A stretch of DNA of 64,000 nucleotides from Euglena gracilis (lineage: Eukaryota), in the NCBI GenBank assembly GCA_039621445.1, contig CP154954.1, positions 44,867,847 to 44,931,846 of the forward strand. Reading direction: 5' to 3'. Below the pieces are notes generated by a model. It saw nothing but the letters and a program-made list of their open reading frames with translations. It did not search any database and was not told where the DNA came from. Position numbers and translations under genes: made by a program. Positions 374 to 64,000 of the stretch are shown in pieces (position 1 is the first letter of the stretch; the number at the start of each line of letters is the position of its first letter).

Positions 374-3300
374 CCCGGCAGGGAGGCGGGTTTTGCCCAG
401 GAAAGGAGCGACCCTCGGAGTGCAAGGCCACGACTTAAAGTATTGGATGCAACCGGGGGGGGGTTTCACAAAAAAAAAACAACCCCCCCAAAAAACGCAA
501 GGAGAGGACGGCCGGGGGGCGGTGGTAGCTGCGTTGCTGGGCGGGGTCCAGGCAGTGGGCAAGCACCTATAGTCAAGCCCAAAAATTTCCCCATTTTAGG
601 CCATTTTAGGCCATTTTAGGCCATTTTAGGCCATTTTAGGCCATTTAAGGCCATTTTAGGCCATTTTAAGGTATAGGTGGGGGTTCTGAAAATCATAATT
701 TTGCGTCATTTTTGTCCCGAAAAAAGTATCATAACGTGTGCAAACCTTCTCTTGTTCAGTAATAACAAATGTACATCCAAAAAAGCATGCAAAATTCAAA
801 ACAATGGGAAGCTCAGCAAGTCTATATTCATATTCATAGAGGAATTCTGAACAATAAGAATTTACGGTAGATAAAATTTTCAGAGAAAAAAAAAACGTTG
901 GACAAAAAATAAGTTTTTTTTAATTTGTGCTACCAAAAAGGCTCCCGTTTTTTTTTGTGAATTCTACACCATTTTGCGGAATTTCGCAATAAGAAGTCAT
1001 TTTTTCTGAAAGATAATGCTGCTGCCTAATGAAATTCAATTTGATTTTGGCATTGTTTCAGTCATGTATATCATTCATTTTATTATTATGATAAATATTA
1101 AAGAATAATTATTAAGATCCATAATACAAACAAAAAATTATTTCCAAAAAAATACAATGAATTTTTATTTGTATTACAGATCTTAATAATTATTCTTTAA
1201 ATACTTATCATAATAATAAAATGAATGATATACATGCCTAAAACAATGCCAAAGTCAAATTGAATTTCACCAGGCAAAAAGTGAAATATATAAACCTAAT
1301 CCTGTACCTATTGACGGATAACATATATCATATGCTATCATATTATATATCCCAATATTATTCCAATTTTATTGATAATATGATTGCAGTAATAATTATT
1401 GTACAATTACACATTATATCAATAAAACTTATTTTTACTTAGTACATATATTTATTAATTTCAACTTATTTCTCTTTTATTACTAAAATTGTATTGTATG
1501 AAAACATGTGTTATTTGTATTACTAAAACTGCATTAAATATAATGTTAATGTTATATTTTTAATTCTACAATTAAAAATTGATGACTATAAAATCTTTAT
1601 AAATATGGAAAATATATCAACAAAATTAATAATAATAAAATACCCACACGAAATATCCACATAAAATACATAGAATATCCATAATAATTTTATGTCTATT
1701 CATAAAAATTGAAACATTAAATTTACTTACAAAAGTTATATTTATATGATGCTAGAATTTTATATTTCAATTGAGATTTTTCCAACATCTTTCATCTTTG
1801 TTTTGACTTTTTCCCCATGCTTCCGTTTCATTATTTGCGAAACAAACATCGGTGCAAACCAACAAGATAGGAGTAAGAAAAAATAATATGTCCAAACCTT
1901 CAAAATTCAGCCACCAAAAAAAGGTTGGGGCTGTGAATTTGGGGACTGATACGAGTGTTATTAGGATAAAACCATGGGCCTTGTGGGGCTGTGCTCCTCC
2001 ACCAAATCCACTGTTTGCCGTCCGCATTAACAAAGGACATTGAAAGGCATTGCCTGAATGGCTTCAGTAGTTCACAAAAAAATTGTTGTGCAACAGAATT
2101 TTTCCCATTTTAGGCCATTTTAGGCCATTTTAGGCCATTTTAGGCCATTTTAGGCCATTTTAGGGACCCCCACCTATAGGGGGTCAAAAAGTCATTTTAG
2201 GCCATTTTAGGCCCTTTTAGGCCATTTTAGGCCATTTTAGGCCATTTTAGCTATAGGTGCTTGGCAGTGGGGGGGGGGGTCCAGAGCCGGAACTTGTATG
2301 GGTGGTTGCGGAGTTGTCCACCCCCACCCACCCACCCCCACCCTTAGATTTTAGGCAAAAATTTTCCTTCACAGGAAGGGGGGGGGTCGGATACCCTCAA
2401 ACCCCCATTTTGCATTGCTTTTGACCATTTCTCCTTCAGAAATCTGGGGTTTGGACGAATTTCTTTCAGGCGCACCTCAAAGAAATACATCCATCCCATC
2501 ATTCTTTTGTCATTTTCCAGAAAATACCGGAAATTTTCGGCTCAACACTTACCGAAATTTCCTGGCGCGGGGCGAGACCCTGACAAGACCCCCCCCCCCC
2601 GGGTCCACTGAGTTCAAAAGGATATTGCCCCCCCCCCCATAGCGGTGGCTCATGACTCAGCGTCATCAGCAAACTCTGTGCATCCTTTTCCAAATGGTGT
2701 GTTGCCCCAACACACTCACCCTGGCCGCCGATGTACTTGTCGATTACCCCGCGGCGCCGCACGATGATGGTGGACAGCTCCTCGAAGAACGCGCCGATGC
2801 TCTCCACCAGCTGGGCCGCGTCGGTGGACTCCGTCAGGGTGGTGAAGTTCTCGATGTCGAGAAAGAACACCGTGGCGCGGGTGGGGACCATCGACAGCGC
2901 GACGGGGGTGCCGTGCTTCAGGCACGGCTGCAGCACCTCCACCGGCAGGAACCGCGTCGGAGCGACAGGCGGCGACCGCCAGACAGGAGGGGGGCCGCAG
3001 GAGGAGGCTCGAGATTCCTGGAGCCATCTCATGGCAAACACGTGGAGGCTCGCGAGCCTCCTCGAGCTGTCCGATGACAAGCTCAAGGAGGCTGGCGAGC
3101 CGGCTCAGGGAGGCTCGCATTGAGGCAATTCCCTGCTTTAATGTATGCCCTTTCCCTCTGCCACGGTTCAAGCCCTTGTGGTTTGGATGTGTATTATGAC
3201 AAATACCCTTTTTTGTTTTTGCCCTTTCCCTCTGTAACTGTTCTGCGGGCTTTTGAAAGCCACAAAGAAAACAACATCCTTTCTCACTCTTTCTGCACCG

Positions 3301-6300
3301 AGTACCCATTTCTGTTTCTTCTTTTTCCCCGTAAGTACATTGCACTTTTCTGAATGTGCGGGGGTATTGCTTAAAGTTATTACCTGGGTGAATAAATTCT
3401 GTTTGTGGAAGCGGTTTCCTACTACAAAAAAAACAGCATTTCTTGATGTCTCCATCTCCCAAGCTTGGAGTTTTCTACAAACTTGCAATTGACGGTAATG
3501 TGCTCAGAACACTGTTATTTGGCAAATCGGTCTAGCCTGGCTACGGTGTCCAGCATGATGCGCATCTTAGCGAAGGACTCCATCATCAGGCCCAGCTCCG
3601 GCCAGGCTCCCTTTTTGGGAACTGGAAACCTTGGAAACTTCATTTCAGTGGACATCCCGCCTGGGAGCTGCCAGGCGTGGAAGGTAGGTAGGTGCAGGTG
3701 GGCGTGCACCCCCCTGCACGCCCTCAACTCCATTTTTAATTGTGTTTGACCAGCTCCCTGGAATCTCCAGCTGGGCCCTAGCAGACCCAGACCCAGAGGC
3801 TCAGTCCTGGATATGCATTCACTTAGCGACTCCTTCAGGGGGCACTTTTTCCCGCCCAAACCCATCCACCCACAGGTGGGGGGGGGTCCCCCCCACTTGG
3901 GTGGTCGAGGCGGGGGGAGGGGTGGTCGATGGCCCACCCACCACCCGTTGGGTGTCCAAGACTCCAGCCTTGTTCAACCCCACCCACCCACACACCCGAA
4001 ACCCACCCCAAAAATGGTTGAAACCCCACAGAAAACTTTGGCCTTTGGCCACACTGACCCGCACCCCACCCCCTGGGGGGGTGAAGTGCCCAACCCACTG
4101 ACCCCCCCCCTTCGGGGCAGTGGTGGTGTTAAAATGAATCCTGGACCTCCCTGGAAAGGGGTTCCGAATCAATCAAAAAGAAATCTGGCCCCCGCACACA
4201 AGTGCCCCGGGGAACGGCGGTGCCCACCACGTCCAGCTCCACGCAGCGGTGCATGTCCCAGCCAAAGGGGGTGGCGGTTGTCAGGTGCCCCAGAAGAACA
4301 ACCGTGTAATACAGTGAAGGAGAAGGCACGGCACCACAAAACACATCCACCGTCACCCCAACTCTGATAAAAAGAAGAAAACAAAACGCCATACTGGAAA
4401 TGTCGAAATGAAACGTACCAAGTGTGGGAAAAGCATGCCAATAATCTCGAGCTGCCAAATGAACCTCTGAATGAAGCTGTTTGGCTTGCGGGAAGGACCC
4501 CTCCAAGCTTCTGGAGGGTCTACGCCTGGACCATACCAATATGCCAAGCAGGGGTTTTTTAAGACCGGGGGGGAGGGGGGGGTCCCCCCCACCACCCACC
4601 CCCTGGGGGGCCTCCCGGGGGGGGGGGTCCCGGGGGACCCACAAAAAATGGCCGAAAAATCGCGAAAAGTGCTAAAAATAGCATTTTTCGGCGCCTGCGG
4701 CGCCGAAAAGTATATCCCACCCCCCTCCGGGGGGACCCCCCCGGGGGGGGGGAGGGGGCTCGGCCGGACCCACCCACCCTACCCCCCCCCGGGGGTCCAC
4801 GACTAAAAAATCCCCTGATGCCAAGAAACAGCCCTTTGCTGAAGAATAATTTCAGCAAAAAGCGGCATGGAAAAAACAGAATGGGTGGTTGGAAATGCAC
4901 ATTTTATCTCACCATTGAAATTTGCCGTGTCGAACATATTCCCATTTGCTTGAGTTTGAAATCCAAAAAAAATATTTTCAGGAAATGTAAATAACGATGA
5001 ATCTCCATGGTTCAGATTTAGTACTTTTTTGAAGTATCCTTTTGTACGACTCATTTCAGTATGGTGCGGGGGGGGGGGTCTGTCGAATTAAGATTTTGGA
5101 ACCAACTTAGGAGCAACCAATACAACAACTTTGAAGTTTCAAGGCTCAAACTGGAAATAAACTTCAGACCAGGATCCATTTTGTGACCGTTATTGAAATT
5201 GTGTGGGGATTTTTGGGGGTCTCCACCAAACTGTGGAAACACTTGGGAGGGATTTTGTTCCTCAAATTCTGTCACACCAACTTTATACCATGCTGATCCC
5301 CCCAGCAGCATGGTATGGTTTGCAGGCTGTTTTTTACCAACCCCGGGGGGGAGGGGGGGTCCGGAGTGCCTGTGAGTGCCTGCCCAGTGGCTACCCCCCC
5401 CCGGGGGGGGGGGGTCGGATTTCGGCCTGTGCCCGGGCACATTCCTTTGAAAATAGGCCATTTTTGGCTCCCCGGCGCCTTCGGCGCCGGGGTTGTGCTA
5501 GGGCACTTTTGGCCGTGTGCCCCCCCGGGGGGGGGGGGGTCGGATTTGGAGTGCCTTGGGGTGCCTGCCCAGGCAGGCACCCCCCCCCCCGGGGTGGGGT
5601 CGGCACCCGACTAAAATACAGCCTGATGGTTTGCCGACACACTGCAGACTGAGCCTGCCAAAGCCTTTGGCCGCCCCCTTGCCAGGCAACCTTCCTCAGC
5701 GGGGAGGCGATCATCTTGTTGGTGAAGAGCACCGCGACGAGGGCCACGGCGGCCAGGCTGGTGACGCTGATGATGACCAGCAGGGCCACTGACCACCGGA
5801 TCGGCCGGTCGACGGGCCCGGTGGCCGTCTTGAGGCATTGGGGTTAGGGGGGGGGGTCGGGACTGCGGTGGGAAATAGGACCCGCCCACCCATGTTGGTT
5901 GCTCACCTGGGTGGTGTCAGGATCAGCTTGATGCCTCCTCCTTTTCCTCACTTCAAGCATTATGAAAAAGGTTGCAGTAGAGTGTGCATTGATCTCCTGT
6001 GTCTGAAACACACCAGTTGCCATTGCATTGCTGGGGTGGATTTGGGCCAGTGACACAGCCCCTTACACCCCCAAAAATGCCAGGTCTCCAACATATTACT
6101 GTTGACATGGAGGTGCGCTAGCCCACCTTCGCAAAAAAAAATGCACAAAAACACGTTACACAAGTGCAAAATCTGAGAGAAAAGGCGCAAAAAAAAATGA
6201 AAAATCATCATGAAAATGAAAAAATTACACCCAAAAACGTGCGAAAAAATCCAAATTTGAAAAACAATATGCAAATGTGAGGAGAATGCCATTTACAATA

Positions 6301-8612: not shown

Positions 8613-8627
8613 TGTGTGTGTGTGTGT

Positions 8628-8708
<81 letters not shown>

Positions 8709-18794: not shown

Positions 18795-18796
18795 CA

Positions 18797-18850
<54 letters not shown>

Positions 18851-19100
18851 GATGGGATGTATGTATGCATACACACATGTGAAAATATGTGCACATATGT
18901 AAATACATACATGCATGATGCACATAATTACGCACACCTGCAACCGACCCTCCGACCTACTGACCTACAGACATGTCTCCATACATACATGCATGCATAC
19001 ATACATACATACATACATACATACATACATACATACATACATACATACATACATACATGCATGCATACATGCATGCATACATACATACATACATACATAC
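18795..19100. repeat. (CA)n(GA)n and (ACAT)n microsatellites; duplicate at ~31926-32228
   Basis: Direct reading. Confidence 0.95.
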
Positions 19101-21817: not shown

Positions 21818-21884
<67 letters not shown>

Positions 21885-31929: not shown

Positions 31930-31979
<50 letters not shown>

Positions 31980-32771
31980 GATGGGATGTATGTATGCATA
32001 CACACATGTGAAAATATGTGCACATATGTAAATACATACATGCATGATGCACATAATTACGCACACCTGCAACCGACCCTCCGACCTACTGACCTACAGA
32101 CATGTCTCCATACATACATGCATGCATACATACATACATACATACATACATACATACATACATACATACATACATACATACATACATGCATGCATACATG
32201 CATGCATACATACATACATACATACATACCTCCCCCCCCCCCTTGTCCAACGACCACTAATGTTCGTCTCTGACCGGGGGGGCTGTCGCTAAAATGGCCA
32301 ATGTTCGTCTCCGACCAGGGGGGGGTGGTCGTTAGACAAGCGGGGTGGACCACAAGTCGGAGGAAAATTTGCCATAGATGGGGGTATATGGCCATTTTTG
32401 GGCTGTTTTTGGCCATTTATGCTATTTCTTGACTACGGTTGGCCACTTTTGGCCATTTTGGAAATTTTTTGAGCGCTTTTGGGAATTTTTAGGCATTTTT
32501 GACCACTTTTTGCCATGTTTGGTCGCTTTTGGCCACTTTTGGCAACTGTTGGCCACACTTTGGCCCCCTTTGACCGTTTTTGGCCACTTTAGGCTGTTTT
32601 TGGTTACTTTTGGCCATTTTTGCCTTATTTTTGCTATTTTTGGCAACTTTTTGGGCACCTTTGGCCATCCCTTAGCCATTTTAAGCCATTTTGGGTTATT
32701 TTTGACTGTTTTTAGCCAACTTTTACCAATTTTGGCCGAACCAACATCGTATACAAAAAGATCATCTCTGA
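19645..32771 (+). repeat. Tandem segmental duplication, copy 2 (~13.1 kb)
   Basis: As for copy 1; scattered SNPs and small indels. Confidence 0.95.
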
Positions 32772-32821
32772 CCGGGGGGGTGGTCGTTAGACAAGCCCGG
32801 TCGTTGGACAAGGGGGGGGAA
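32229..32821. mobile_element. MITE inserted in an (ACAT)n tract; truncated copy at ~19099-19644; relatives at ~35590-35650, ~48917-49535 and ~56355-56420
   Basis: TIR (C)nTTGTCCAACGACC/GGTCGTTGGACAA(G)n; internal degenerate TTTTGGCCA repeats. Confidence 0.75.
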
Positions 32822-33495
32822 CAGACAGACATACAGACATACATACAGACAGACATACATACATACATACATACATACATACATACATACATACAGACAG
32901 ACATACAGACAGACAGACATACATACATACATACAGACAGACATACAGACATACATACCTACATACATACATACAGACATACATACAGACATACAGACAG
33001 ACACATACAGACATACAGACAGACGTACATCCATACATAGATACATACAGACGTACATACAGACATACATACATACATACATACATACATACATACATAC
33101 ATACATACATACATACATACATACATACATACATACATACATACATACATACATACATACATACATACATACATACATACATACATACATACATACATAC
33201 ACACAACCATACACACAACCATACATACATACATACATACATACATACATACATACATACATGCATACATACATGCATGCATACATGCATACATGTACAT
33301 GTACATGTTCATGCATGCATGCATGCATGCATGCATACAGACAGACAGACATCCCTGCCTTAATAACACACGTATACACATACATACACACATGCATACA
33401 TGCATACATAGAAACATACATGCATGAATGCATGGATGCATGCATCCATCCATCCATCCATCTGTCTGTCTGTCTGTCCGTCCGTCCGTCTGTCC
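32822..33495. repeat. Compound tetranucleotide tract (ACAG/ACAT/GCAT/CCAT/CTGT/CCGT)
   Basis: Direct reading. Confidence 0.95.
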
Positions 33496-40392: not shown

Positions 40393-43300
40393 TCAGCAGG
40401 GGCGGACCGCATCCACACCGTCCTCCTCCTCCTCCTCCTCCTCCTCGTCCTCCTCGGGGGCGGTGGTCACGCCACCGGGGGTGTGCCACGTCATGACGGT
40501 GTCCGGCCCGGAGGAGGCCACCTCGGGGCCGTCGGGGTCCACCAGGCGCAGCAGCTCGTACACGCTCATCCCCATCGCCGGCGGCAGGCAACCCACCGCA
40601 GTTGGGGGTGCATGCCAAGGCGCTGGAAGGCTTTTTGGCCAACTTTTCCAGTGGGACCGCGGTTCGAATGCCCACTCCTCAACAGGTGGGGAATTCGTTT
40701 GGTCAACAGCGCATATGTCAAAAAAAGGCAAAAAAAATGGGGGGAAAAGCAGACCGAAATTTTTTCCTGAAAAAAAGACTGATATGGGTACTTCCAGACA
40801 TGCTTTTCGGCATTTGACCTGAATGGCTGCGCACCCCTATGCAATGGGTTCAAATCAGTGCAAATCGGCGGTCGAATTGATAAGCAGTCCAAAATTCGCC
40901 AGTTTTTTTTGCAAGAAATATCTACCCCCCCCCCCAAATAACGGGGCGGGGTGCCCCATTACTGGCACCATCTTTTTGACCTGCCCCGTTATTTGGGCAC
41001 TACCAATCATCATGGAATTCCCTCACAGACCTGTTGTAATGAGTGACGAGTGACACATCCTCCTACTTATGGAAATGATGAGTGTTGCAAACCTGACATC
41101 CGAGACCTTGAATATGATTTTGACCCACCCATTTGTTACCACTAATTTTACAACAAACTTAACACTGAATAATACCAAATAGCACAGCTGGATGAATGGG
41201 GAGGGCAGAGGCAGTCGCCTGAACTTGCCCTTCAGGTAAACGCCGTCCAGCCTCCGGGTAAAATCCAGGCTGCTGTGTGAACCTGAGCATCTGAACTGGG
41301 GACCCCTAACCCCCAAACCCCCCAGAAGCAAAAATAACAAGAACGCCTTGTTGTGGCTCAAGGAAGAACATGAAACAAGTGCAACTGTTCGCAGTGGCAG
41401 GGGGGGGATGGCGCTCTGCCTCCTCGAACCCCCCCCCAGAAGCTCTAATGACAAGAACAGTTTGTCATCTCAAAAGTGTGCAAGTTGCAACGCTTTTTTT
41501 AATCTGATGTGAGTTTCCTGCCTACCCACCCACCCTCGCACCCTCCTTCACCCCCTCCCTGGCCACTCCTCACTTCCTTCAGGCCATATGTGTGGAACCC
41601 TTCGCAATGTTGTTTGCCTGGTCGGGATTTCCAGTGGCCGGAAAGCACCCCCCCCGGGCAGGGCTGTACGGGATGGCCTGGCGGGGAGGGTGGTCGACCC
41701 CCCCACCTGCGAGGTGGGGGAGGGGGCAACCCCCCGTTTCAATGGACAAAATAAAAGTTCTTGTCGGTGCCTTTAGCGCCAACGCAAAAAAAAAAATTGG
41801 CCTAAAAATCGGCGCCCGCAGGAATACTGGAAGGGGTGGGAGGGGTTCAAACCCCAACCGTCAGGATTGGGGGGAGGGGAACTCAGGCTGGCATAGGTGA
41901 GGTATATGGCCATTTCAGGATGTTTTTGGCCCCTTTGGCTAATTTCACCGCTGTGGCCGATTTTTTTTTGAACCACTTTGGTGATTTTTTTTTGAAAACC
42001 GAAAATGAACTCAAATAATCATTTCCATAACTTTAGAACCAGCATCGCATCCAGAAAATTAATTGCATCTGACCAAGGGGCAGGGCTGTACAGGAAGAAC
42101 TGGTGGGGCACTGAGCGAGGGACCCGTGGGAATTTGGGGATTCCCATGCAGGAAGGGGATCCTTGGGGCGTTGTTGGACAACCCAAAACAAACCGCTGGA
42201 CAAATGAGTGATCCTTAATGATTTTCTTGGATTTCAAAGAGAATATTAACATACCAAAAAAGGTGATAGTATTGGCTTCTTCCAGAAATGTCAGAAAACA
42301 TGCTTCAACTTCATTATTCAACACATTACCCACCCCTGAGCACCACTTTCAATTCCATCAATAATGTGCCGGATGTGTCGTTGTTGTTGTTGTTGTCGCC
42401 GCTGGTTGTTGGGGGGGACTTTGTGCACACCTCAACAGGAGCCTCGCCACCACCCGCCGCTCCACCGCGGCGTGCAGCTGCGGCCCGATGAGGATGCGCG
42501 TCTTGCGCTCCTTGTTGAGCCCCTCCAGCCGGCTTGGCCGCAGGCCCGCCGCCTTCTCTCTTGGTCCTTCTCCAGACAGGCCGCAAATGCCCGACAGCCA
42601 CTTCGGGGTGGCTGCCACTGAACTCCTCCGAATTAAAGCAAACTGATGCTTCAAACTGGGTCTCGCCAGTAACTGACCCAGTACCGCTGCTTCAGACTTC
42701 GGGCAGAATGGTGGGGCCCAGCCTGGCCGCCACGTTGACCACATCGCCCACCACGGTGTAGTTCATGCGGTGCCGCGAGCCGAAGATGCCCGCGTGGACC
42801 TGCCCCGCCTCCAGGCCCATCCGGCCGGAGAGGCGGGCGCATGGGGCTCTGCTGGGAATGAGGCGGTGCGGGCAGGGGAAGGAATGGATTGCAGAGGGAG
42901 GTCAACTTGGGGGAAGGGTGTCGCGGCTGTGAGAGGGTGCCCGCCCCGGTGCACCCCGCACAAACGAGGCTTTGCTGGTTCCCTTTTGGTGATGAAAAGG
43001 GAGGAGGGTTGCACGGGAAAAGCAACCCTCTCCTGCTCTTTCCTGAGGACGGTTCACCATCAGCGCGTCTTTTAACCCCCCCCCCCAGGTTGTCCAGTTC
43101 AGAGGCTGGAAAATTCGGGCTGCCAGATAAAGGCTGCTGGCTGACCCCACCCACTTGGGGTCAGGGGGGGGGGGAAATTGATATCGGAGGCCTTCGGAAA
43201 AATTGCGGAAAAATTGCGGAAAAATTGCGGAAATTGCGGAAAAATTGCGGAAAAATTGATATCGGGTATACACATTTCTGTCTGAGGGGACTTAGAAAAT

Positions 43301-46300
43301 TTTCAATTGTGAGGTTCAGAACACCGCAACACCCACGTCGATGCAGGGGAGCACAAATCAACACGCTTGATGTTCTTTGCACAGGTGGGACGCACCCAAT
43401 TCTGTAACCAGTGGTGCACCTGTGAGAAAAATTGGTAAACTGGGGGGAAAAAAACAACAAAACACAATAGCACACCTGTTGATCCATTTGAAGAATGGCT
43501 TGAACTCATTGCATCTTCCATCTTCGGTGGTGGGAAAAAAATTCTGCGGAAAAAAAATGGGAAAAAATTGCGGAAAAATTGCGGAAATTGCGGAAAAATT
43601 GCGGAAAATTGCGGAAAATTGCGGAAATTGCGGAAAATTGCGGAAATTGCGGAAAAATTGCGGATATCAATTTCCCCCCCCCCTGACTTGGGGTACCAGG
43701 CTTGGGCTGGAACTGGGCCCAACCAAGGATCAGGAACCAAAAAAATCGACCATGTAAACTCCAAAAAACTTCCAATTGTGCAAAAAGGCGATCTTTCCGA
43801 CCCATTTTTGCCCATTTTCGGCCCATTTCTTTGACACCTGAAAGCAAAAATTCATCACCGTCCAGCCTCCCGAAGGGTGGCTGGAAACAAATGATAAAAC
43901 CCATTTATGGGGGGCGTCTGGGCTGGAAAGATGCTGGTTGGCTCCTCCCTGGGGATGGGGTCGAATTTTCTTCCACTCGCCAATCTTTCATCCCTGGCTG
44001 CCGTTCTGTGCCCCCCCAAGCGGAAATCACACAAGATGAATATCCTGTTGCCCAGATTGATTCCACTTCCCGCCTGGCCAGAGAACGCCCATCCAAAATC
44101 AGTCATCACGACCGGAAGGCAGGTCTTCAGCCCATCCCCCATCCCCGGGGCCCCGCGATAAAAAAAGCCACCCAGCCTGCGGGGCCGCAGGGCGCCATGC
44201 CTGCAGGGAGCCGCCCTGCCGGTGGACCATCCAGTCTGCGCACTCCAGCGCCGCCCGGCACGCATGGTACTCGTGGTCCTTGACGGGGGACGGGGCGTTC
44301 CAGAAGGCCATGACGCAGTCCCCGGCAGGCGATGGGCCGGGGCTTTGTCGTCCAGAAATGCGGGTCTTGAAAAGCAGGGGATGCCGGTGTTCACGGTTTT
44401 CAAAAACGACAAAGAAAAGGATGTGGCCGGGAAATAAATGAAAAGGACACAACCAGCACCCTTCACAGCCCTCCACCCATTACCCCACAACGATGTCATC
44501 TCGTTTCTGTGCATTACATCCTTTGATCCTGAATCTCTTTGGTAAAAGAAACCCTTGCTGAAATCAACAGCAAATAACTGCGGACAAAGAGCAATCCCTC
44601 GTCCAGGAAACCATGAGTATCAAAAAGAAGCAGGGCGACGCCCACCACACACGAGTGTGGTGGGTAGTGTCAGAGTGAGATGCTTCTCCAGCGGGTCTGA
44701 AACAGCACTCCAAACTCATTCATATGGTCTGGGGCCAAGGCCCACCCTGGCCGCCGATGTACTTGTCGATTACCCCGCGGCGCCGCACGATGATGGAGGA
44801 CAGCTCCTCGAAGAACGCGCCGATGCTCTCCACCAGCTGGGCCCAGGGATCGGCAACAAACACTCCCCACCCCCCACGCCACCAAAAAAAAGCAGAAAAA
44901 CAACTTCGAACCGCCACCGAACTACCCTGCATTCAGCCTCAGAACAAAGTGCTCTAATTCTGCTAAGGCCTGGAGCACTGGTGGGCGTGGATTTACCTCG
45001 CCAGGTCGGGGAAAACCGCTGCAGACCATTTTCCTTCAGCAATTCAAAGCCCAGCAGGGGGGGGGATGTGGTATTTGCAAAAGGAGGGCATTGCAGGAAA
45101 TAATCTATCCTGAGACAATTTTGGTGCACAGGGCGAAGCCTTAGACGGCCGGGAATGCACTTTTCTTGTTGAGTCACAAAAGTATGACAGTTTTAGTGAA
45201 AATGCGCATCCGCGCATTTTGGACCCGGAGTGCGCAGGTGCGCATTTTGCATAGTTTGATGCCTCTTCCAGACTGGGGGGTAAACACCACAAAAATGAGC
45301 TGTTTGGATACACGACTATAAGGACCATCCCCTTGTTTACTGGTTCAACTACGCAGCATGCTGTTTACAGCTGTTTCCCGACGACTGTGGTACAGTGCGT
45401 GGCTGGACTCACACTCGGCACACTCCACACGACATGCGGAACACGGACGACGCACACCAACCTGGACCTGGGTGTGCCACCCTTGTGTTCACCGGTGCGT
45501 GCTGATGGCTCCTGGGGGCAGGGCCTGGTGAACCCGGGATGAGCATGGGAAGGAACACCTTGCAGGCATGGAGACACAGCCCTCCCACGGTCAAAACAAT
45601 GGGGGTGTCACTGAGTATCAGGGCCGAAGAATGCGCACCTGCGCATTTTTTGGAAACCCAAAAGAATGCGCAGGTGCGCATTTTTTGGAATGGACACAGC
45701 CTGTGGGAAGGGGGGAATGCGCACACGCGCATTGACGTTGAAGGACACACTGGGTATGGCCTGTTGTTTGCCTGCCTTGAATGCGAGCTGTGCACCGCTA
45801 TGATGTGGTTTCGGGCTTGCAGAACATGGGTGTGTGAGGGGGAGATGAAATAAAATAATCGGTCTTGGAAAAATTGTCGCTGTACCAGGCCACACCCTGA
45901 AACATGACACCTGCAGCAGCATGGAAAATCCTGGGCTTGGCGATGGCAGGTGTCAAGGCACGAATTCATGTCCTTCAGTGATAGGGGAACTGCCCCCTGC
46001 AGTGCAAGTCATTGAGCAAATCAGAATGCGCACCTGCGCGCTGCAGTCCAGTGCCCAGCCCAGCCTGCGCTGCTCTCATGAACGTGTGGAGCAAGTCACA
46101 ACGCAATGCAACTGTCCCCCACCCGGCGGAGGTGGTGGGCCGGTTGGTGCCAGCGTTGTCCGACCCCACGCCCCAGAGCGTGCATGGCAGCACACAGCCA
46201 ATGGTCGCACTGAACAACCTTACGTTGGGCTGTACGAGGTGCAAGAAGCACTGTGCCCGACAATTAGGGTCAACGCAGGGGGTTGTGTCTGGTTCCACCC

Positions 46301-49300
46301 ACAGTGCTCACGGGGTTGGCACCTCGAGAGCGAAGCACGCCTGTCACCACCTTCGGCATCATTCCCCCAAAACGGTCTGTAAACACAGAATTAATTTACA
46401 ATCCAAATGGACTCAAAGAAGCGAACACCACTGGTCAGTCCTTACCCCAAAATTTCTCCAGGCCCTTGAGATTGTGAGACAAGCAAGCCCATCACAACAA
46501 AAACTTGCCGATAAATCCAGTATTTTTTTCCGTTCTGCTTTTTCGTGTATTCCACTGTGTCATACCAAGGGCATACGGATGAGAAAGGGACTTCAATGCC
46601 CGAGGAAATTCCTCAGTGACGGGCACCCTAACTCCCAAATGCGGTCAGCAGCCCTTCATGGCATGAGTGAAAAGCCGGTGAATGCGCACATACGCAAAAA
46701 ATCGTCCTGTGCCTTTCTTTGAATGACAGCCACACCGTCGAATATTTTCACTCCAGATGGGTATGCCACCACCCACGCCAACTCCCCCCGCCTGGCCTGG
46801 TTTTGAAACCACACAGCTGAAGTGAAGACCTCCCTGCGAGGATCGAATGGTGACCGAGGACGAGGCAGCCCTGGAGCGAAACACGGCAGATGAGGACCAC
46901 CACCTGTGGCCTTGCTGGCAACAAACGTCACCCACCACACAGAACCCTTTTTTATCATGAACTTAGAGTCGACACACCAACAAACTACACAACCCTTGGC
47001 CGCTGTGAAGACCAGGGAAAGCACATATGCACACACCTTCTCCACACACCACATCCGCAATGGCTGCAGTCAAACATGGCACATTGGGGTGAATGCGCAC
47101 ATGCGCATTCCCTTCTTGTGTCTCCCCTTAAAGCACCCTGGTGGGAGGTTGCTGTACAGGGCCATGCCAAACAACTCAGCACACAAGGTAGAGGCACAGC
47201 CCAGGAGACGTACACCCTACTCTGGCGGCATCCTCTTGTGCAATGAGATGCCTCTGAAATTGCTAACAAAAAGGGCAGCAGTGCACCATGGGGGTAGCCC
47301 TGCCACAATGCTGTGCTGGCACTGGGTTCAGGAGTGCGAGACACAGCTCCCCACAACACAGAGAACGCGCACCTGCGCACTCCCCCTCACAAAATGCGCA
47401 GGTGCGCACTCTTGTGGATGCCCAGCGCTGTTCCCTGCAGGTAGAATCACAGCCGGCCAGCGAAGGAATGGCCTCGAGTGCGCACGTGCGCATTCTTGTG
47501 CCTCATGCAACCTCGAAGAGGAGCCATTTTATGTTGTTTGTGAGGGCTGTTCTGGAGGGTGTGGTCTGTGGCAGAAAGGCTTGAGGCAGGGCTCCGCTCC
47601 GTGGCTTTCAAAACCAGTGACACACAGGAAAGGGGTGCAAGCCAGCCCCCCCCCTTCCATACCCAGCACCCCATCCCAAACCTCACACCCAAACACAGGT
47701 GGTCCCACATGGTGATGTGCCGTGGTGCCTATGAGAAGGCACATGGGGAGCGGACGGCGTGCGCCACTGGAGGGATGCTGTGCCTGTATGTGTCACAGAG
47801 GGGTGCAATGCACCTTGTGGAATGGCAAACAGCGGGCAGCCTGAGGAGGGTGACGAGCCCTCCCCAACACACATCTGGAGTGGATTTAAACACACACACC
47901 CCGCCACTCTCTGAATGCAGAGTACACGTACACAACAAACATTCACCATCGCCCCCTCGTGCCCTGCTTCCAGCACAGGGCACAGAACCTCCCATCCACT
48001 CTAACCGCAGAGACCACAGTGCCCCCTACCCACAACCACCCCTGGGAGCCACAATAACCGTCCAACACTTCAGGAAAAGGCCGGGACGGGGAGGGGGGTG
48101 AATGCGCACCTGCGCATTCACTGGGGTCCACAAAACAGGGGGGCAGCCACAGGTACAACGCCTTCACCTGACGGGCGTCCTCGTGAAACAGCGTTTTGTG
48201 TCGCACCACTTTGGCAGACGGGGGTTTTCCCTCGGTCCGCGGAGGTGCTAAACCGTCATTTTCAAAACGATAAAAGTCGGTTTGCCCAGGAAAAAAACCC
48301 AGGGATCGAAGGTAGTGGTACCCATTTTGGTACCAGGGGTTTCAGCTGACGGGTCGGCCGCCCCGTCAAGTGATGACGACACACTTGGTCTCAAAAGAAT
48401 GCGCAGGTGCGCAAAAAAACACCAAAAATGAAAAGTGCATTCCCGGCCGTCTAAGGAAGCGCCAAGCTGAAAGACCTGCCTCCCAAAATCCTTCCTGGAG
48501 ACAGTCCCCTCCTGGAGTCAGTCTGACCCTCCTGGTAGGTGGAGGTTTGGTCCGGACCCCCCTCCAATCTAGGAGGGGGGGGGGGTGTCAACCCCATCCT
48601 GGACACCCTATCAGTTCTTTGCAATGAGTTTTCAACAGCCCCAACAGCTTTGTGGATCAAATCCTGGGGACAATGGAGTGCTCAATCCCACGGGTAATGG
48701 GGTTGGGGAACTCTTCTTCTTTTGGTGAAAGTTTGTTCTGCCCTCAATGGCATGCGAAGACCTGACTGGGCCGCATCGGTGGACTCGGTTAGGTTGGTAA
48801 AGTTCTCAATGTCAAGGAAGAACACTGTGGCAGCCGTTGGGGCAGAGGGGGACCAGCAAAATCTCTTCAGGAGAATATCTTCTCCTATTTGCGACACAAA
48901 TTGGAAAGAAGACATTACCTCCCCCCTATGTCCAACGACCGGTAACCTCTGTCCTCTGACCGGGGGGAGGGGTCATTGGACATAGGGTAGTGACCAAAAA
49001 GGTGTCCTCTGACCAGGGGGGTGGTCGTTGGACACAGGGTCGGGGAAAAAAAAGTTTGCCGAACCCCCCCAAACAGGTCATAATTTTCCTTCCGGCGCTT
49101 CGCGCCCCCATTTCCAGCCCTGTCAACAATATTTCCTCAAAGCACCCAGAACGTATCACGCTGTGGGATTTCACAAAACAAAGATACCTAGTCGACAATC
49201 CCTGCATTCCATCAACCATCTTCACTGCATCATACAACCTAGCAAACACCCGAAAATGTCATGGCGGAACGTTGGGAGTGTTGTGAAGCTCCTTCGACAA

Positions 49301-50514
49301 CCGCAAGCACTATCCCCCAGGTGGAGCGCTCGTAATGCACAAAACTCACCAGAGGGAACATTTTAATGGACGATGGGCTGCGGGGTAGAGGACAAGGGGG
49401 GAAGAAAAGCCTTTCAGGGCTGGAAAACCTCCGGTTTCACACATCTGCAAAAAAACAACAACATCAAACCTCCGAAAAGGTGTCCTCTGACCGGGGGGGT
49501 GGTCGTTGGACATAGGGGGGTCGTTGGACATATCTGATGGGTATGATCGTGGAGTACAGGGTGACGTATTTCATTGTTGCTGGTCACAAAAACAAGAAAA
49601 AGTCGTTTGATTGGGAGCAAGATGGTCAACGCCTGGGTTCTTGTGGTTGCAGGGGGTCACTACGGTCCAGCCCTGGGGGGCACCATCGAGAAGCCCACCG
49701 GCGTGCCGCTCTTCAGGCAGGGTTGCAGGACCTCCACCGGCAGGAACCGCGTCGGGGTAGCAGGTGGCTGCCGTGGCCCAAGGGGGGTTCCTTTGGTCCT
49801 CGGGGGGAACAGACAACTCGTGAGATGTGATTTCGGAAGGTTGGATTTTTACGTTCCACCCCCCCCCCCGCGGAGAACACGTCCACCGGTGCAAGGCAAG
49901 AAGACAAACTTCGCAAGGCAGACTTTCCAACATGAAATAGTTGTCGACCGCAGCCATCTTTGAAGCTTTTCCCCCAAAAAAATGCGTAATGCACCGAAAC
50001 TTTTTTCCAGTCCATTGCAGCTGTACCAGGCTACACCAACTTTCAGCGACCCTCCCCTCGGGGGTCTGCAGCCTTGCTGGGAGCTGCTGGTTGGGAAAAA
50101 GTGCTCCAGCTGGAGTCCCCCCTAGTCCTTTCCACCAGAAGTGATGCCCTGGTGGGTATCATATGACGCTCCACTAGAAATTCCATAATTTCTGACAGAT
50201 TGTGCCAAGCTTCAATGTCGGCAAGAACTGATGAAACTAATCAACAAACTGAATTTATTCTTTGTTTTGGTTCCCAAGGTTCGATTTCCTAATGTAATAT
50301 TCTATAGTCACAAAACTACACGGTTTATTTTTGGGAGGGTTTCGAGAATGCGACAAGCTGGGCCGGAAACAAGCAATGGCCGCCTGGCCACGGTGTCCAG
50401 CATGACGCGCATCTTGGCGAAGGACTCCATCATCAGGCTGAGCTCCCGCACACAGGTTCCCCGGGGCACGGCAGAGCCCACCACGTCCAGCTCCACACAG
50501 CGGTGCATGTCCCG
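40393..50514 (-). CDS. Gene B: paralogous HAMP plus class III adenylate cyclase, 9 exons (50390-50514, 49679-49753, 48768-48838, 44753-44838, 44222-44320, 42729-42865, 42431-42535, 41225-41251, 40393-40579)
   Basis: Joined protein has FFLDIENFT, DKYIGDCVMAFWNAP, RMGLEAG, NYTVVGDVVNVASRLEGLNK, ILIG and LKGK...VYEL, then an acidic tail and TGA. K, T, N, R and both Asp catalytic residues are present. Some junctions are uncertain by a few nt. Confidence 0.88.
40580..41224 (-). other. Nonconventional (GT-starting, intermediate-type) intron of gene B
   Basis: GTT-CAGGCGAC...GTTGCCTG-CCGCC; restores KGKAMGMSVYEL. Confidence 0.8.
42536..42728 (-). other. Nonconventional intron of gene B
   Basis: GGC-CAGGC...GCCTG-CGGCC; restores VNVASRLE. 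Confidence 0.8.
43162..43685. mobile_element. CAG...CTG MITE with 9-bp TSD and (GCGGAAAATT)-like subterminal arrays
   Basis: TIR CAG(G)nAAATTGATATC; ACTTGGGGT on both flanks. Confidence 0.88.
44321..44752 (-). other. Nonconventional intron of gene B at IG|DC
   Basis: GGC-CAGGGTGGGCC...GGCCCATCGCCTG-CCGGG stem. Confidence 0.85.
44839..48767 (-). other. Nonconventional intron specific to gene B, with a 7/8 TSD
   Basis: GGCCC|AGT-CAGG...CCTG-GGCCC|AGC; absent in gene A. Confidence 0.88.
45139..48456. mobile_element. 3.3-kb TIR element with 3-bp TSD, superfamily unassigned
   Basis: 27-bp perfect TIR CCTTAGACGGCCGGGAATGCACTTTTC; TSD AAG; dispersed GAATGCGCACCTGCGCATT motifs in both orientations. 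Confidence 0.88.
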
Positions 50515-51284
50515 GTTGAAAGGGGGTGCATATATTTGATGCACGGAGCCAAATGACGCACCGGAGGTCAGCCCCTGGCTGAAACAGAAAAGCTGGCGGG
50601 ATCGGTGAGGCCGGACCGGCATAAGCAACGACCTGAGAGGCAAAACTTTGAGATAATTTCTTGTCATCAAAATGGTAACTTCCCCTTGTCATCAAATGAA
50701 CCTTCGCTTTTGCTGAAAAGTCGAAATTTCAAGAAATATCTGAAAAAAATTGCTTTCCAGGAACATGATTTTTTTAAAGAAATAATTAAAAAAGCACTAT
50801 ATAAAAGCACTATATAAAAGCACTATATAAAAGCACTGGAGAAGGGGTTGTGGTTGGACAAATGTCAGTGTTTAGACAAGGGAAGAAGGGAGGTGACGTG
50901 AGCTTAAAGATCCTGGACAGTGTCACCCCCCCCCCGACTCCTTTGAGTGAGGATCAGCCACTTGTAGCCCGACGGCGTGACCGGACGACAATATAAAGCA
51001 AGAACTGTGGCACCACAGCACCTGGATGATGTTAACCACGCATCAATTCGGGCAAACATCTTTCACCATCAAGAAAGGCTGGTTTCCTTCAAAACGTGGT
51101 TGCTGAGGTGAAAAACCAATCAAGCTGGAAGGAACACCTATGCAGCCACTGGTGGTCACGAACTGTACCAAAAACCTGGAGGCACATTGAACCAACCCTC
51201 ACCCAACATCAACACAGACCGATATTGGAGGAAGGGAAGAGGGGGTTTTTGGCTTTTTTGGCCGAGACCCGGTTGTCCCTCAGC

Positions 51285-54200
51285 TCGGGCGGTGGTCTCA
51301 CACCGCAGGCACACGCCGCGGTTCACCCAAACCTTGTTGATGGGGCGGGCGCACACCGTGCACGGCGTGGAGCCGGAGAGGTGGCGCTGCGGCAGACATT
51401 GGTCGGGGGCACAGCCCTTTCCGATTTTGTGGTGCTAATTTTTTTGTGGTGTCAGGGTTGATCAATGTTCGGCCCAGCTTGGAGCGCTAGGCCGAACATC
51501 AGCCAACACGCCATTCTTCACAACAGCTGTTTTGCCACTCGATCAAAAAAGGATGGAAGGGGGTGGGGCAGAGAAGCGCCGTGGGCACCGTGATCGCTGA
51601 AGGCGGCCACCATGTTGTCCCACAGCGGCGCCACCGCCTGCCGCACCTCTGCCAATAGCTGCGGCAGCTGGAAGTCCTGCGGCAGGAAATCCGCTGAGTG
51701 GTGACGGCCGAGGCCCGTCCGTCCGCTAACCCCAGTGTCGCAGCACCCTGAACGTTGGTGTTGACAGGCATGCACCCATTGCTGGACTATGTGGTCCAGT
51801 CGCACTCCCGTTGCGGGTGTTTGATGCAAGCTCGAGATACGTACGTGCCTGGCGGACCCCGGGGCTGGCGGGGCCGGGGTCACCGATGCGAAACGCAGGG
51901 CGGTGCGGGCCCTGCCCCGGGGAGCGCAGCGGCCGCTGGATGACGGCCAGCCAGCGGAGCACTTCGCGGTTCACGTCGGCGATGCCCTCCAGGGTGTGGA
52001 GGCAGCCACCCCGCTCGCAGTGCTTAGCCAGTGCTTCGCCATCAAACACCAGACAACCCATCCAGTTTGGTGTATGGGTTACTTGCACTGGGAGGGTCAC
52101 CCTCTTAGGCGGCCGAATTCGCACTTAAGCTTTTTTCCTTTTGATTTGCGCAATTGCGCAAATGCACGATTTTTTTGTAAACCCTGGGACCCTGTACCCT
52201 GACAGCCGGAACACGATTTATGAGCTATGACACCCCTCCACTGGAGGGGATTGACTCCCAGTGGTCTGGTGTGCATGCTGCTTGCCAGGTGCCGTTAATA
52301 GGGCGGATGGTGAGACTTGTGCTGTTGTTCATCAAACGGGAGAGAGGCACACACCCCTTGTGACGACACTTGGAACTGGTGCTGACGTGCTGCCTGAACT
52401 GGCTGTGACACTGCCGCCACCGGTAAGAACACACTGAGTCTCATGACATCACACCACCACAGACACACAGACTACGTGAGGCAGCCGTCACCCAATTGAT
52501 GTGTGTTTGTGCGCGCAATTGCGCAAATAAAAACAATTGTGTTTGATGCGCGCATTTCGCAAATAAAACATACACCGATGATGATAAAATGACGTGTTGG
52601 TGGGCGCCAGTGCGCGCACCAACACATTTGGTGGTGTGCGCATTTGCGCAAATGCGCACACCACCAAATGTGTTTGGTGCGCGCATTTATGCCCACAAAC
52701 ACGTACGTTTACCTTCCATGTTAAAAGACACCAATGAGGACCATGACTTAGAAGGTTTAAAAACGTGGTGGACGTGTTGGTGCGCGCAATTGCGCAAATA
52801 AACATAATTTTGTTGATGCGCGCATTTGCGCAAATGCGCGCATCAACATGTTAATAAACCGCTTCCAAATAATGTGTTTGTAGGGCCCTTAGAGCACATA
52901 AACAAAGTTTGTTGATTTGCGCAAATGCGCGCATCAAAACACATCAGTTGTGGGATGCCATCTCCTGCTCTGTGACGGCTGGCGAACACAATTCCTCACG
53001 CCAGCCATTGATTTGCTCCAAGGTTACGTGGCGATGAAATTGGTGGTGAGAGGTGGTGTGGAGTGTTCACTGGAACACGGCATGTGACTGGCCAAAATTT
53101 GCCTGCCTTACGTGTGTACATGTGCACTGCTGTTCCCCGGTCCGAACGGTCTGTTGTTTTGGTGTCATGTGTTTGGCAGTTAAACGTAATGAGTTGATGA
53201 CGTGCAAACGACCTGTGACTGTTGGACACTTTTTGTGCAACAGGACTGCGTTACAGGAAGACAAAATTTGGCACCTGAAACACCCGGGATGTGTCCGGCC
53301 GGAGTCCGTTTTACGGTTTTCTTTGCCATTTTTCCCTTGAAAAATGTAAAAAACACCAGTTTTTGTGCATAATTTGGGGGGAGTGGGTCCCACCGCTTTG
53401 ATGCGCCCAATCCAGGGGTAAAGGTTCAACACTTCCTTGCATCCAAAGTAACGGGTGTTTGAGGGCCACCTCTCTCCAGCTGTTGGTTGCCATGCACTGG
53501 CACCACGTCGTCCCCCCAGTCTTACACCCCGGTTGCGGGGTATAACGGGGCCGCTGTGGTGGGTGTCGTTGCACCGGGGAGGTCGATGCCGGCCTGCTGG
53601 GTGCTGAAGCATCAGCAGCTGATGGGGCTGCAGCAGCGGAGCCGAAGCCGCAGGCCAGCTGCAGGGCACTTGGGACCCAAAAATTGGTGCCCGTGGAGGT
53701 GAACGGTTACTGGGTGGCTTTGCACCCACCTTCAAAAGATGCTATGTCTCCATCTTTTGCCGGACCTGTCAATGGTCCAAAAACGGCACAATAACACCAT
53801 ATCCCGGAGGGGACGGTGTAGTCATTTGGGTTGAACCCACTCAGAAGCCACTAAGGGTGGCTGTAGGGGGGCCGAATGAAGTCACTTATTACTCCTCCAC
53901 TGGTGGTTTATTTGCGCATTTGCGCGCATCACGTTGTTTTGTGGGCGCAAATGCGCAAATAAAACAGATGTAAACTGAACAATTTACATCTGTTTTATTT
54001 GCGCATTTGCGCCCACAAACAACGTGATGCGCGCAAATGCGCAAATAAACCACATCTGCTGTCGGCGTTTGACGGCCATGTTTCCGTCACACCGTTCTTC
54101 TTTGCGTTTATGGGCGCAAATGCGCGCATCAAACACAAAACACGTTTGATACGCGCATTTGCGCAAATGCGCACATAAACATGTTTTGTGTTTGATGCGC

Positions 54201-63799: not shown

Positions 63800-63910
63800 T
63801 CGAATATTTGTCGACTCTTTGCTAGAATATTTTTGCAATATTCGAATGTTCGAATATTTTGAAGTAATCGAATATTCGTCGAATATTCGAATGTTCGAAG
63901 CAGCCTTATG
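63800..63910. repeat. CGAATATT/CGAATGTT palindromic repeat cluster, probably a transposon end
   Basis: Multiple TCGAATATT(CGA) units ending in GCAGCCTTA. Confidence 0.6.
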
Positions 63911-64000
63911 CGGGCCAGGCGGGGAGTTGCGGGGAAATCAAAATGCCGTTGAACAGGGCATTTTGAGGGCTTCAGTACCACCCCCCCCCCCTTATTGTCC

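Follow-up and report, generated by a model that had tools for sequence, protein, structure and literature searches.

One of two paralogous genes in a 64,000-nt stretch of the Euglena gracilis genome (GCA_039621445.1, contig CP154954.1, hereafter the window), gene B, is interrupted by an insert of 3,929 nt that is almost certainly a spliced nonconventional intron of the euglenid type. The paralogue, gene A, lacks it at exactly the same site, in agreement with an earlier note made from the letters alone, which had described the intron as specific to one paralogue. Taken as a whole, a spliced nonconventional intron born by insertion with target duplication is the likely reading of this locus, whether the difference between the two genes arose by gain or by loss.

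The origin of Euglena nonconventional introns and the mechanism of their removal are open questions, and such introns reportedly account for about 72% of all introns in E. agilis. The locus described here unites a filled site, an empty site, a junction proven by RNA and a near-intact 8-nt repeat, which stands in exact register with the 3-nt and 5-nt spacers defined experimentally for this class of introns.

Gene B encodes a cyclase and is spliced across the insert

Gene B is a receptor-type class III adenylate/guanylate cyclase of Euglena, and the intron lies in the first part of the catalytic domain. Its product corresponds to the EukProt protein EG_transcript_1910 (P0001), which is identical to our 157-aa reconstruction apart from a 16-aa insert from an alternative acceptor; with EG in this label read as Euglena gracilis, the identity of the gene B exons to the transcript protein identifies the host as a euglenid. 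The protein search that retrieved EG_transcript_1910 gave no protein identical to gene A; a third paralogue is represented by EG_transcript_2386. The Guanylate_cyc family (PF00211) is present in full-length P0001 and P0002 according to precomputed annotation, and the gene A exon alone matched it with an E value of 6e-4 and 19.9 bits, just below the cut-off of 21.9 bits, because only profile positions 9-49 fall on this exon. The elements of the filled and empty sites are the following:

48768..48838, minus strand: gene B exon e4 (..ATVFFLDIENFTNLTESTDAAQ), in which the cyclase catalytic domain starts, 80% identical to A
44753..44838, minus strand: gene B exon e5 (LVESIGAFFEELSSIIVRRRGVIDKYIG), 85/86 identical to A
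44839..48767, minus strand: nonconventional intron of gene B, 3,929 nt, with an RNA joint, in the placement that fits N3-CAG...CTG-N5|R
48766..48772, minus strand: 5' direct-repeat copy, GGCCCAG, with GGCCC as the exon end and AG as the intron start
44837..44843, minus strand: 3' direct-repeat copy, GGCCCAG, with GGCCC forming the 5-nt spacer that closes the intron and AG opening the next exon
48762..48764, minus strand: 5' CAG motif, intron positions +4 to +6 (from the sequence and the splicing code of PMC12501133)
44844..44846, minus strand: 3' CTG motif, intron positions -8 to -6, followed by the 5-nt spacer and a purine
2810..2817, minus strand: empty site in paralogue A, the octamer GGCCCAGC once within an uninterrupted exon

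On the minus strand, gene B reads GATGCGGCCCAG-TCAGG...(3.9 kb)...CCCTG-GGCCCAG-CTGGTGGAG, the 3,929 nt lying between copies of a direct repeat that is exact over 7 nt (7/8). Removal of the insert from the mRNA was evident from the RNA joint 44836>48766, in which 3,929 nt are skipped and 7 letters fit either side; run X21 gave it in eight raw RNA reads, all starting at different positions, and X15 and X19, two runs presumed by guess to be RNA, each had a single contig with it. The spliced product restores the reading ...GCG GCC CAG CTG..., and EG_transcript_1910 is continuous across the site, where it reads DAAQLVES. The cDNA junction had been placed at DAAQ|LVES in the earlier note; RNA joint and transcript protein both agree with it. 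The joined form was present in 0 contigs of X1, the one DNA run examined, in which a contig covering 48679-48919 (depth 79, no mismatches) crosses the 5' exon-intron boundary. The RNA joint and the transcript protein ruled out a dinoflagellate or introner reading as well as conventional GT-AG borders, among them a GT...AG pair with which the product would be 10 residues longer.

The intron borders can be placed in eight equivalent ways (44837-48765 through 44844-48772), with terminal dinucleotides TC..AG, GT..CA, AG..CC, CA..CC, CC..GC, CC..GG, GC..GG and GG..TG; none of these eight placements compatible with the mRNA has GT-AG or GC-AG borders. One of them, AGT-CAG...CTG-GGCCC|A, is an exact fit to the code 5'-N3CDG-/-CH'GN5-6|R (PMC12501133), and the first base of the downstream exon is a purine, A. 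The duplex formed by the first and last 25 nt of the intron has an energy of -9.0 kcal/mol, a value as low or lower being found in 209 of 300 internal control 25-mers, and pairing beyond CAGG/CCTG is weak, whereas the published code, as described in PMC12501133, needs pairing after CAG and before CTG. By analogy with this code, the ends of the intron in the pre-mRNA would be joined by CAG(G)/(C)CTG pairing and the RNA would be cleaved 3 nt ahead of CAG and 5 nt past CTG, before the purine. Splicing would in this way take out the insert together with precisely one of the two 8-nt repeat copies.

The intron is flanked by a direct repeat present once in gene A

The exact 7-nt repeat (CTGGGCC on the plus strand) occupies 44837-44843 and 48766-48772, and the eighth position is T in the 5' copy (48765, intronic) versus C in the 3' copy (exonic). 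In gene A, which reads GACGCGGCCCAGCTGGTGGAG, there is a single octamer, at 2810-2817. Two further statements of the earlier note were confirmed by these data, namely that gene A is uninterrupted with a single octamer, and that in gene B the octamer is doubled at 7/8 around CAG...CTG with its mismatch in the intronic part. When a gap of 3,929 nt was slid over the window, only 40 of 60,031 placements (0.07%) gave at least 7 equivalent positions, and random gaps of 100-5,000 nt did so in 467 of 400,000 cases. The 7/8 repeat directly flanks CAGG...CCTG, which is the layout of a target-site duplication, although with an inverted repeat of only 4-5 bp.

A comparable arrangement was found at other introns of the window, three of which are listed here:

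48839..49678, minus strand: second nonconventional intron present only in B, 840 nt, CCC-CAG...CTG-CCCC|A; RNA joint 48838>49679
44321..44752 (in A: 374-2726), minus strand: nonconventional intron common to A and B, GGC-CAG...CTG-CCGGG|G; RNA joint 44319>44752
3598..4190, minus strand: nonconventional intron present only in A, GGC-CAG...CTG-GCCGG|A, 6/8 in-register repeat; borders inferred from the uninterrupted exon of B

Among the ten introns that could be defined in the window, nine have N3 plus a triplet at one end and the complementary triplet plus N5 at the other, and a purine follows nine of ten. The 8-nt in-register repeat gave 45/80 matches over the ten introns versus a shuffle mean of 31.7 (p 0.0015), while slid registers gave only 23-31; without the 3.9-kb intron of gene B, the count was 38/72 (p 0.012). 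The second B-only intron, whose joint was seen in 13 reads of X21 (both=2), has 3+4 spacers and a repeat of 2 nt, and holds another high-copy repeat. The joint of the common intron at 44321-44752 was seen in 18 reads, and its ends pair strongly, the duplex energy of -27.8 kcal/mol being reached by none of 300 controls. The window also contains a 13.2-kb tandem duplication, the two copies of which were compared as a source of fresh insertions; they differ by 32 gaps, the largest of 14 nt, and none is element-like.

The register of the repeat with the spacers supports birth by insertion with target duplication, splicing restoring the original target, and the 7/8 repeat of gene B is probably the trace of the insertion that created the intron. 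DNA ending in CAG...CTG would have gone into the target GGCCCAGC, which would have been doubled as an 8-bp staggered site. Since "nonslidable" introns without a direct repeat, the set used in the splicing assays, and fully artificial introns are spliced (as reported in PMC12501133), the repeat is a matter of history and not a requirement for splicing.

The interior of the intron is a nested high-copy repeat

Most of the intron length is taken up by repetitive DNA, as follows:

45132..48463, no strand assigned: nested high-copy repeat filling the intron interior, with 39-nt inverted arms, recognised by DNA word depth
44847..45131, minus strand: outer stretch of the intron on its 3' side, of low copy number (44847-44968 at least) and unmatched elsewhere in the window
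48464..48761, minus strand: outer stretch of the intron on its 5' side, unmatched elsewhere in the window

The arms of the interior repeat (45132-45170 and 48425-48463) are 87% complementary over 39 nt, and eight exact TGCGCANNTGCGCA palindromes lie between 45132 and 48463. Summed DNA word depth in X1 was 114,000-235,000 in the bins of 44969-48370 versus 142 in the bin 44402-44968. No target duplication around this repeat was seen by eye at the ends of its arms. From the depth and the inverted arms, it appears that the intron was later enlarged by a nested high-copy repeat of 3.3 kb. Over roughly 290 nt at either end the intron has single-copy depth and matches nothing else in the window, so that the whole intron is not a visible member of a transposon family. 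The many near-identical copies that would mark an introner or MITE family were not found within the window, where only the nested interior is of high copy number. A Pfam scan of the four longest of the insert's 35 stop-to-stop ORFs of at least 70 aa revealed no credible protein family and no transposase, and an Rfam scan of the whole window gave no match.

Gain in gene B or loss from gene A

The earlier note had taken the duplicated octamer as direct evidence of gain in B over loss in A, and this claim was not borne out, since a precise loss leaves the same empty site. The repeat cannot serve to date the event: in-register matches of 5/8 and 6/8 persist in two introns that occupy the same positions in A and B and so predate the duplication. 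For the same reason it leaves gain in B versus loss in A unsettled. A metagenome scan for euglenid orthologues as outgroup returned 17 loci with 29-49% identity, distant cyclases, none of them usable. Our preference, held with some reserve, is for a gain in B after the A/B duplication.

The strongest competitor, to which we give serious weight while holding it somewhat less probable, is that the intron is ancestral and was lost from A by a precise, probably cDNA-mediated deletion that also removed its 840-nt neighbour. Gene A lacks both of these adjacent introns, which in B are separated by an exon of 71 nt, and a single recombination with a spliced copy would remove them together. The 7/8 repeat may itself predate the duplication, given that the shared-position introns keep 5/8 and 6/8 and that A and B have the same N3 and N5 spacers at the KYIG|DCV intron, the shared intron for which both copies show their ends; the third-position divergence between the genes is moreover only 30/102. 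Nevertheless, the exons flanking the empty site of A are not B-like (80-83% identity), and A is not generally poor in introns, as it has at least two that are missing from B (3598-4190 and one starting at 335). Surveys also report frequent gains of nonconventional introns at the level of species and strains (PMC3935182, PMC4770533).

The exon adjoining the intron site is nearly identical in both genes

Directly 3' of the intron, the paralogues are more alike than elsewhere. By blastn, A 2717-2817 and B 44743-44843 are identical at 100 of 101 positions. Exon e5 differs between A and B at 1/86 positions (0/29 third positions) and the other exons at 41/308 (30/102), about 87% identity, with Fisher tests of e5 versus the other exons giving p 5e-4 for all positions and 3e-4 for third positions. 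Going outwards from the intron site, A and B first differ 8 nt upstream and 41 nt downstream. The near-identity of e5 points to a putative gene-conversion tract adjoining this site.

Such a tract could be accommodated if the intron arose when a staggered double-strand break was repaired with capture of filler DNA, and not from a transposon, the A-like exon being the conversion tract of the same event. The position of e5 and of the nearest differences suits this explanation, as do the outer intron parts, single-copy by depth and without another copy in the window, and double-strand break repair has been proposed for an 8-nt repeat case in E. agilis (PMC4770533). We hold it to be unlikely, however, as random filler would rarely start with CAG and end with CTG right beside a duplicated 8 nt. 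The other side of the tract is bounded by a shared intron, and the tract may just fill the only island of A/B homology, which also fits a later, unrelated conversion.

It is very improbable that the repeat is itself a by-product of gene conversion, in which a tract derived from A extended over the last 5 nt of an already existing B intron and wrote GGCCC there. The 100/101 block does stop precisely where the 3' repeat copy ends, but the tract would have to end just before CTG, the match of the intron-start AG to the first two bases of the next exon is left unexplained, and other introns without an adjoining conversion tract show the same in-register signal. Lastly, an assembly error or a dead gene copy with an unspliced insertion can hardly explain the insert: its interior is a high-copy repeat, where assemblies tend to fail, but the flanking exons are joined precisely by spliced RNA in three runs (X21, and the presumed RNA runs X15 and X19), the contig of the independent DNA run X1 crosses the 5' boundary without mismatch while the joined form is absent from that run, and an intact transcript protein, EG_transcript_1910, from a spliced gene argues against a dead copy.

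A bolder extension of birth by insertion may be offered as a speculation that we regard as rather improbable: Euglena nonconventional introns would descend from a CAG...CTG-ended element that, like hAT elements, makes 8-bp target duplications, the fixed 3+5 spacers would be there because the excision machinery evolved to take out the element plus exactly one duplication copy, and the A-like tract, which starts within 8 nt of the site, would be the repair scar of the very double-strand break that gave rise to the intron. If so, intron birth, target duplication and ectopic repair from the paralogue would be one event at this locus.

Comparison with known systems

The layout of an element plus 8 bp, which matches N3+N5 = 8, resembles that of hAT transposons. 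On insertion these DNA transposons duplicate 8 bp of the target site, and their short terminal inverted repeats often start with CA(G). The insert of gene B differs from them in that its TSD-like repeat is 7/8, its inverted ends measure only 4-5 bp, no transposase was found in or near it and no Pfam family in the ORFs scanned, and no family of copies was seen. No literature linking hAT to Euglena nonconventional introns was found in the library searched.

With introner or MITE introns of Micromonas, Amoebophrya and Polarella, as reviewed in PMC11282704, it shares a TSD-like repeat, short inverted ends and splicing that removes the element with one repeat copy. In contrast, introners are described there as multi-copy families removed by the spliceosome, whereas the outer parts of the gene B intron are single-copy by depth and the machinery that removes introns of its class in Euglena is probably not the spliceosome (PMC12501133; PMC11282704). 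New introns of Daphnia pulex, with short direct repeats attributed to double-strand break repair (as cited in PMC4770533), are similar in having such a repeat at the junctions of lineage-specific introns, but they are spliceosomal GT-AG introns.

The closest resemblance is to Euglena nonconventional introns, for which the splicing code N3-CDG...CH'G-N5-6|R (Nomura et al. 2025, PMC12501133), TIR/TSD-like ends with a proposed MITE-like origin (Milanowski et al. 2014, PMC3935182; PMC11282704) and excision as full-length circular RNA (PMC11282704) have been reported. Among the RNA joints listed for gene B there were no back-splice joints. As in the introns described in PMC12501133 and PMC3935182, the borders are not GT-AG and are slidable, with CAG at +4 to +6, CTG at -8 to -6 and a purine thereafter. 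The gene B intron differs in that, at 3.9 kb, it is at the long end of the reported range, its ends pair weakly beyond CAGG/CCTG and its interior is a nested high-copy repeat.

A direct precedent is intron 4 of gapC in E. agilis ACOI 323, a nonconventional intron with an eight-nucleotide direct repeat, interpreted as recently gained (Milanowski et al. 2016, PMC4770533). Like it, the gene B intron is present in one version of the gene, missing from a close relative and bordered by a repeat of about 8 nt; the gapC case was polarised by five other strains without the intron, whereas here two diverged paralogues are compared with no outgroup, and gain versus loss is undecided by the locus alone. 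TSD-like repeats (PMC3935182) and an 8-nt repeat at a young intron (PMC4770533) are thus already in print for the euglenid nonconventional class, the latter at a recent gain; the earlier note had not recognised the intron as one of this class. The intron of gene B is a clear further example of this described kind, and the locus adds one case to those of Milanowski (2014, 2016), the 2024 review and Nomura (2025).

Results

Gene B, one of two paralogous cyclase genes on the minus strand, reads ...ACC GAT GCG GCC CAG, then TCAGGTCTTC ... GATCCCTGGGCCCAG, then CTG GTG GAG... on that strand, whereas its paralogue gene A reads ...GAC GCG GCC CAG CTG GTG GAG... without interruption. As the earlier note had it, a filled and an empty site are thus both present in the window. 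The main features are:

44839-48767, minus strand, 3,929-nt intron of gene B as placed here
44837-44843 and 48766-48772, exact direct repeat at this intron (plus-strand CTGGGCC)
44753-44838, minus strand, exon e5 of gene B, directly 3' of this intron
44321-44752, minus strand, intron shared with gene A (374-2726 in A)
2810-2817, minus strand, single copy of the octamer in gene A
3598-4190, minus strand, intron of gene A absent from gene B
51998-56506, minus strand, 4,509-nt nonconventional intron of the neighbouring gene
6464-19644 and 19645-32771, tandem duplication of 13.2 kb
32821-33425, 18980-19100, 32109-32229, 8582-8700 and 21760-21876, microsatellites

Reads and contigs were mapped over 41000-58000 from four data sets with one common organism label: X21 (raw RNA), X15 and X19 (contig sets labelled RNA by guess) and X1 (DNA contigs). 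An RNA joint 44836>48766, which skips 3,929 nt and leaves 7 letters that can be assigned to either side, was found in eight X21 reads with eight different starts and in one contig each of X15 and X19, and in none of the X1 contigs. As an X1 contig (48679-48919) spans the 5' exon-intron border without mismatch, DNA from an independent data set contains the insert. When proteins were searched with the 77-aa exon of gene A, 2 of 121 candidates were returned. The gene B protein P0001 (eukprot:EG_transcript_1910, 764 aa) is identical to 157 reconstructed gene B residues bar a 16-residue insert, and reads ...TESTDAAQLVESIG... across the intron site. Therefore, the junction predicted earlier, DAAQ|LVES, was confirmed twice, by the RNA joint and by the protein. 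The organism is a Euglena, and EG in the protein label is taken here to mean Euglena gracilis.

The gene that hosts the intron encodes a receptor-type class III cyclase, with PF00211 detected on the cyclase exon (E 6e-4) and also annotated on full-length relatives. The 16 extra residues of P0001 (KTRISGRQSPGPSPAG; 44321-44368), between KYIG and DCVMAFWN, arise through use of another acceptor within the shared intron, at 44368, and this acceptor also fits CTG + 6 nt + purine; X21 reads at this intron used the acceptor at 44319/44320. Exons for P0001 residues 1-455 were absent from the window upstream of 50513 (50514-64000), where an RNA contig of the same strand joins 56657-56507, 51997-51866, 51702-51586 and 51403-51275 in an unrelated open frame. 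Either gene B has an intron of more than 13.5 kb that houses a different gene, or the layout of the locus is another one. The two tandem copies show 98.5% identity (blastn; 125 mismatches, 32 small gaps), and each contains the N-terminal exons of gene A. Both copies align with residues 62-415 of P0001 (16473-6580 and 29611-19760), so the locus has a partial extra copy of the 5' half of the gene. The microsatellites include an ACAT array of 151 copies at the end of the duplication, CATA arrays of 30 copies and GT arrays of around 59 copies.

None of the eight possible placements of the 3,929-nt intron has GT-AG or GC-AG ends. One of them, exon GCGGCCC | AGT CAG G ... C CTG GGCCC | AGCTGG, consists of 3 nt, CAG, the body, CTG and 5 nt, followed by an exon with a purine first, and so matches exactly, as AGT-CAG...CTG-GGCCC|A, the signature 5'-N3CDG-/-CH'GN5-6|R that is reported for Euglena nonconventional introns from knock-in experiments (Nomura et al. 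2025, PMC12501133). Ten introns could be defined in the window, five in gene B by RNA joints, three in the neighbouring gene by one RNA contig and two in gene A by comparison with B. In nine, a 3-nt spacer with a triplet at one end faces the complement of that triplet with a 5-nt spacer at the other. The triplet pairs are CAG/CTG five times and CAT/ATG, AAG/CTT, CCG/CGG and CAC/GTG once each; a further intron has GAG opposite CTG. A purine follows directly in 9/10. The 4,509-nt intron of the neighbouring gene fits this code exactly (GCC-CAG...CTG-CCTCC|A) and carries an exact direct repeat of 5 nt, with 6/8 matches in register.

The octamer that had been described as duplicated 7/8 around the gene B intron proved to be an exact repeat of 7 nt with an eighth, mismatched position, at which the 5' copy has T, an intronic base as described, and the 3' copy C, an exonic one. 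Chance seldom gives a repeat of this length, which was found in 40/60,031 placements of a gap of the same length in the window and in 467/400,000 random gaps. For all ten introns, the 8 nt made up of five exon bases and N3 were compared with those made up of N5 and three exon bases, giving 45/80 matches, against 23-31 in registers slid by 1-4 nt and a mean of 31.7 in shuffled pairings (p 0.0015); leaving out the 3,929-nt intron gave 38/72 (p 0.012). This register is exactly the one expected of an 8-bp target duplication around an insert ending in CAG...CTG.

The interior of the intron (45132-48463) is flanked by 39-nt inverted arms, 87% complementary, and holds 8 of the 15 exact TGCGCANNTGCGCA palindromes of the window (0.01 expected by chance). 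Its summed word depth in X1, a marker of high-copy repeats and not a copy number, was 114,000-235,000 vs around 140-180 in the neighbouring exons, whereas the depth bin 44402-44968, into which the final 125 nt of the intron fall, was at single-copy level. No second copy of either outer part was found within the window, and none of the four longest ORFs of the insert matched a protein family. The high depth of the interior and the single-copy outer parts indicate that the intron proper is around 600 nt of unique sequence, enlarged later by a nested repeat whose ends are distinct from those of the intron. The 15 palindromes form two clusters (45231-48413 and 52147-55062), both in repeats of very high depth, each harboured by a large nonconventional intron (3.9 kb and 4.5 kb).

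In every run, depth was highest at 55742-56308 (1.3 million summed in DNA), where there are also loose ends of C/G homopolymer; a 351-nt skip there (55843>56195) occurs both in RNA and in DNA contigs and is therefore a repeat variant and not a splice joint. At around 700-2040, inside the 2,353-nt intron of gene A, lies a block of around 1.3 kb with 24% GC, a long internal palindrome and arrays of the 10-nt unit CCTAAAATGG on both sides. The block may represent DNA of organelle or foreign origin inserted into a minisatellite.

Exon e5 (86 nt) differs from gene A at one position and at 0/29 third positions, vs 41/308 and 30/102, respectively, in the other four exon pieces (Fisher p 5e-4 for all positions, 3e-4 for third positions). 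The nearly identical block (A 2717-2817 vs B 44743-44843, 100/101) runs from the final base of the 3' repeat copy to 9 nt inside the shared intron, and points to a gene-conversion tract.

Discussion

The gene B insert is a nonconventional intron of Euglena flanked by a target-like repeat, a case of textbook quality. The repeat had been taken as direct evidence of gain in B, a step that these data do not justify, as older introns, at two positions common to A and B, keep repeats of 5/8 and 6/8. At one shared intron (KYIG|DCV), the 3-nt and 5-nt spacers are identical in both genes. As third-position divergence outside exon e5 is so low, an 8/8 repeat predating the duplication could easily remain 7/8. 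We nevertheless lean towards gain of the 3,929-nt intron in B. A single cDNA-mediated loss would account at once for the absence from A of two adjacent B introns (3,929 and 840 nt, with a 71-nt exon between them); against this, at least two introns of A are missing from B, the one at 3598-4190 (6/8 repeat) and one from 335, and nonconventional intron gains are described as frequent in published surveys (PMC3935182, PMC4770533). The A-only intron from 335 downwards begins GGC-CAG-G... and has its 3' end beyond the window start; exon 44320-44203 of B is continuous there in RNA. A metagenome scan for euglenid orthologues gave only distant cyclases (29-49% identity), and the third paralogue, P0002 (EG_transcript_2386, 83% identity), is known here as protein alone.

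In the simplest reading, the conversion tract fills the sole stretch between two B introns in which A and B are homologous, which would imply that the 3.9-kb intron was already in place at conversion. A bolder reading would make conversion and insertion two scars of one repair event. It is very improbable that the 3' repeat copy was itself a product of the conversion, as this would not account for the corresponding AG at the 5' end of the intron.

The repeat can be considered as a probable footprint of origin. The splicing assays described in the 2025 study used 'nonslidable' introns, which have no direct repeat, and fully artificial 50-bp introns were also spliced (PMC12501133), so a repeat is not required for splicing. 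The same study reports a direct repeat at 84.4% of E. agilis introns, vs 43% expected by chance in our window. As the spacers of 3 and 5 nt add up to 8, splicing would take out the insert and one repeat copy, restoring the target.

A MITE-like origin of nonconventional introns has been proposed (Milanowski 2014, PMC3935182), and TIR and TSD-like ends are described in a 2024 review (PMC11282704). In E. agilis gapC, an eight-nucleotide repeat is reported at a strain-specific, recently gained intron and attributed by its authors to double-strand break repair (Milanowski 2016, PMC4770533). Origin by insertion with target duplication is therefore already published as a general idea, to which the 3 + 5 = 8 spacer link is added here by inference, and the gene B intron is one more case of an already known kind.
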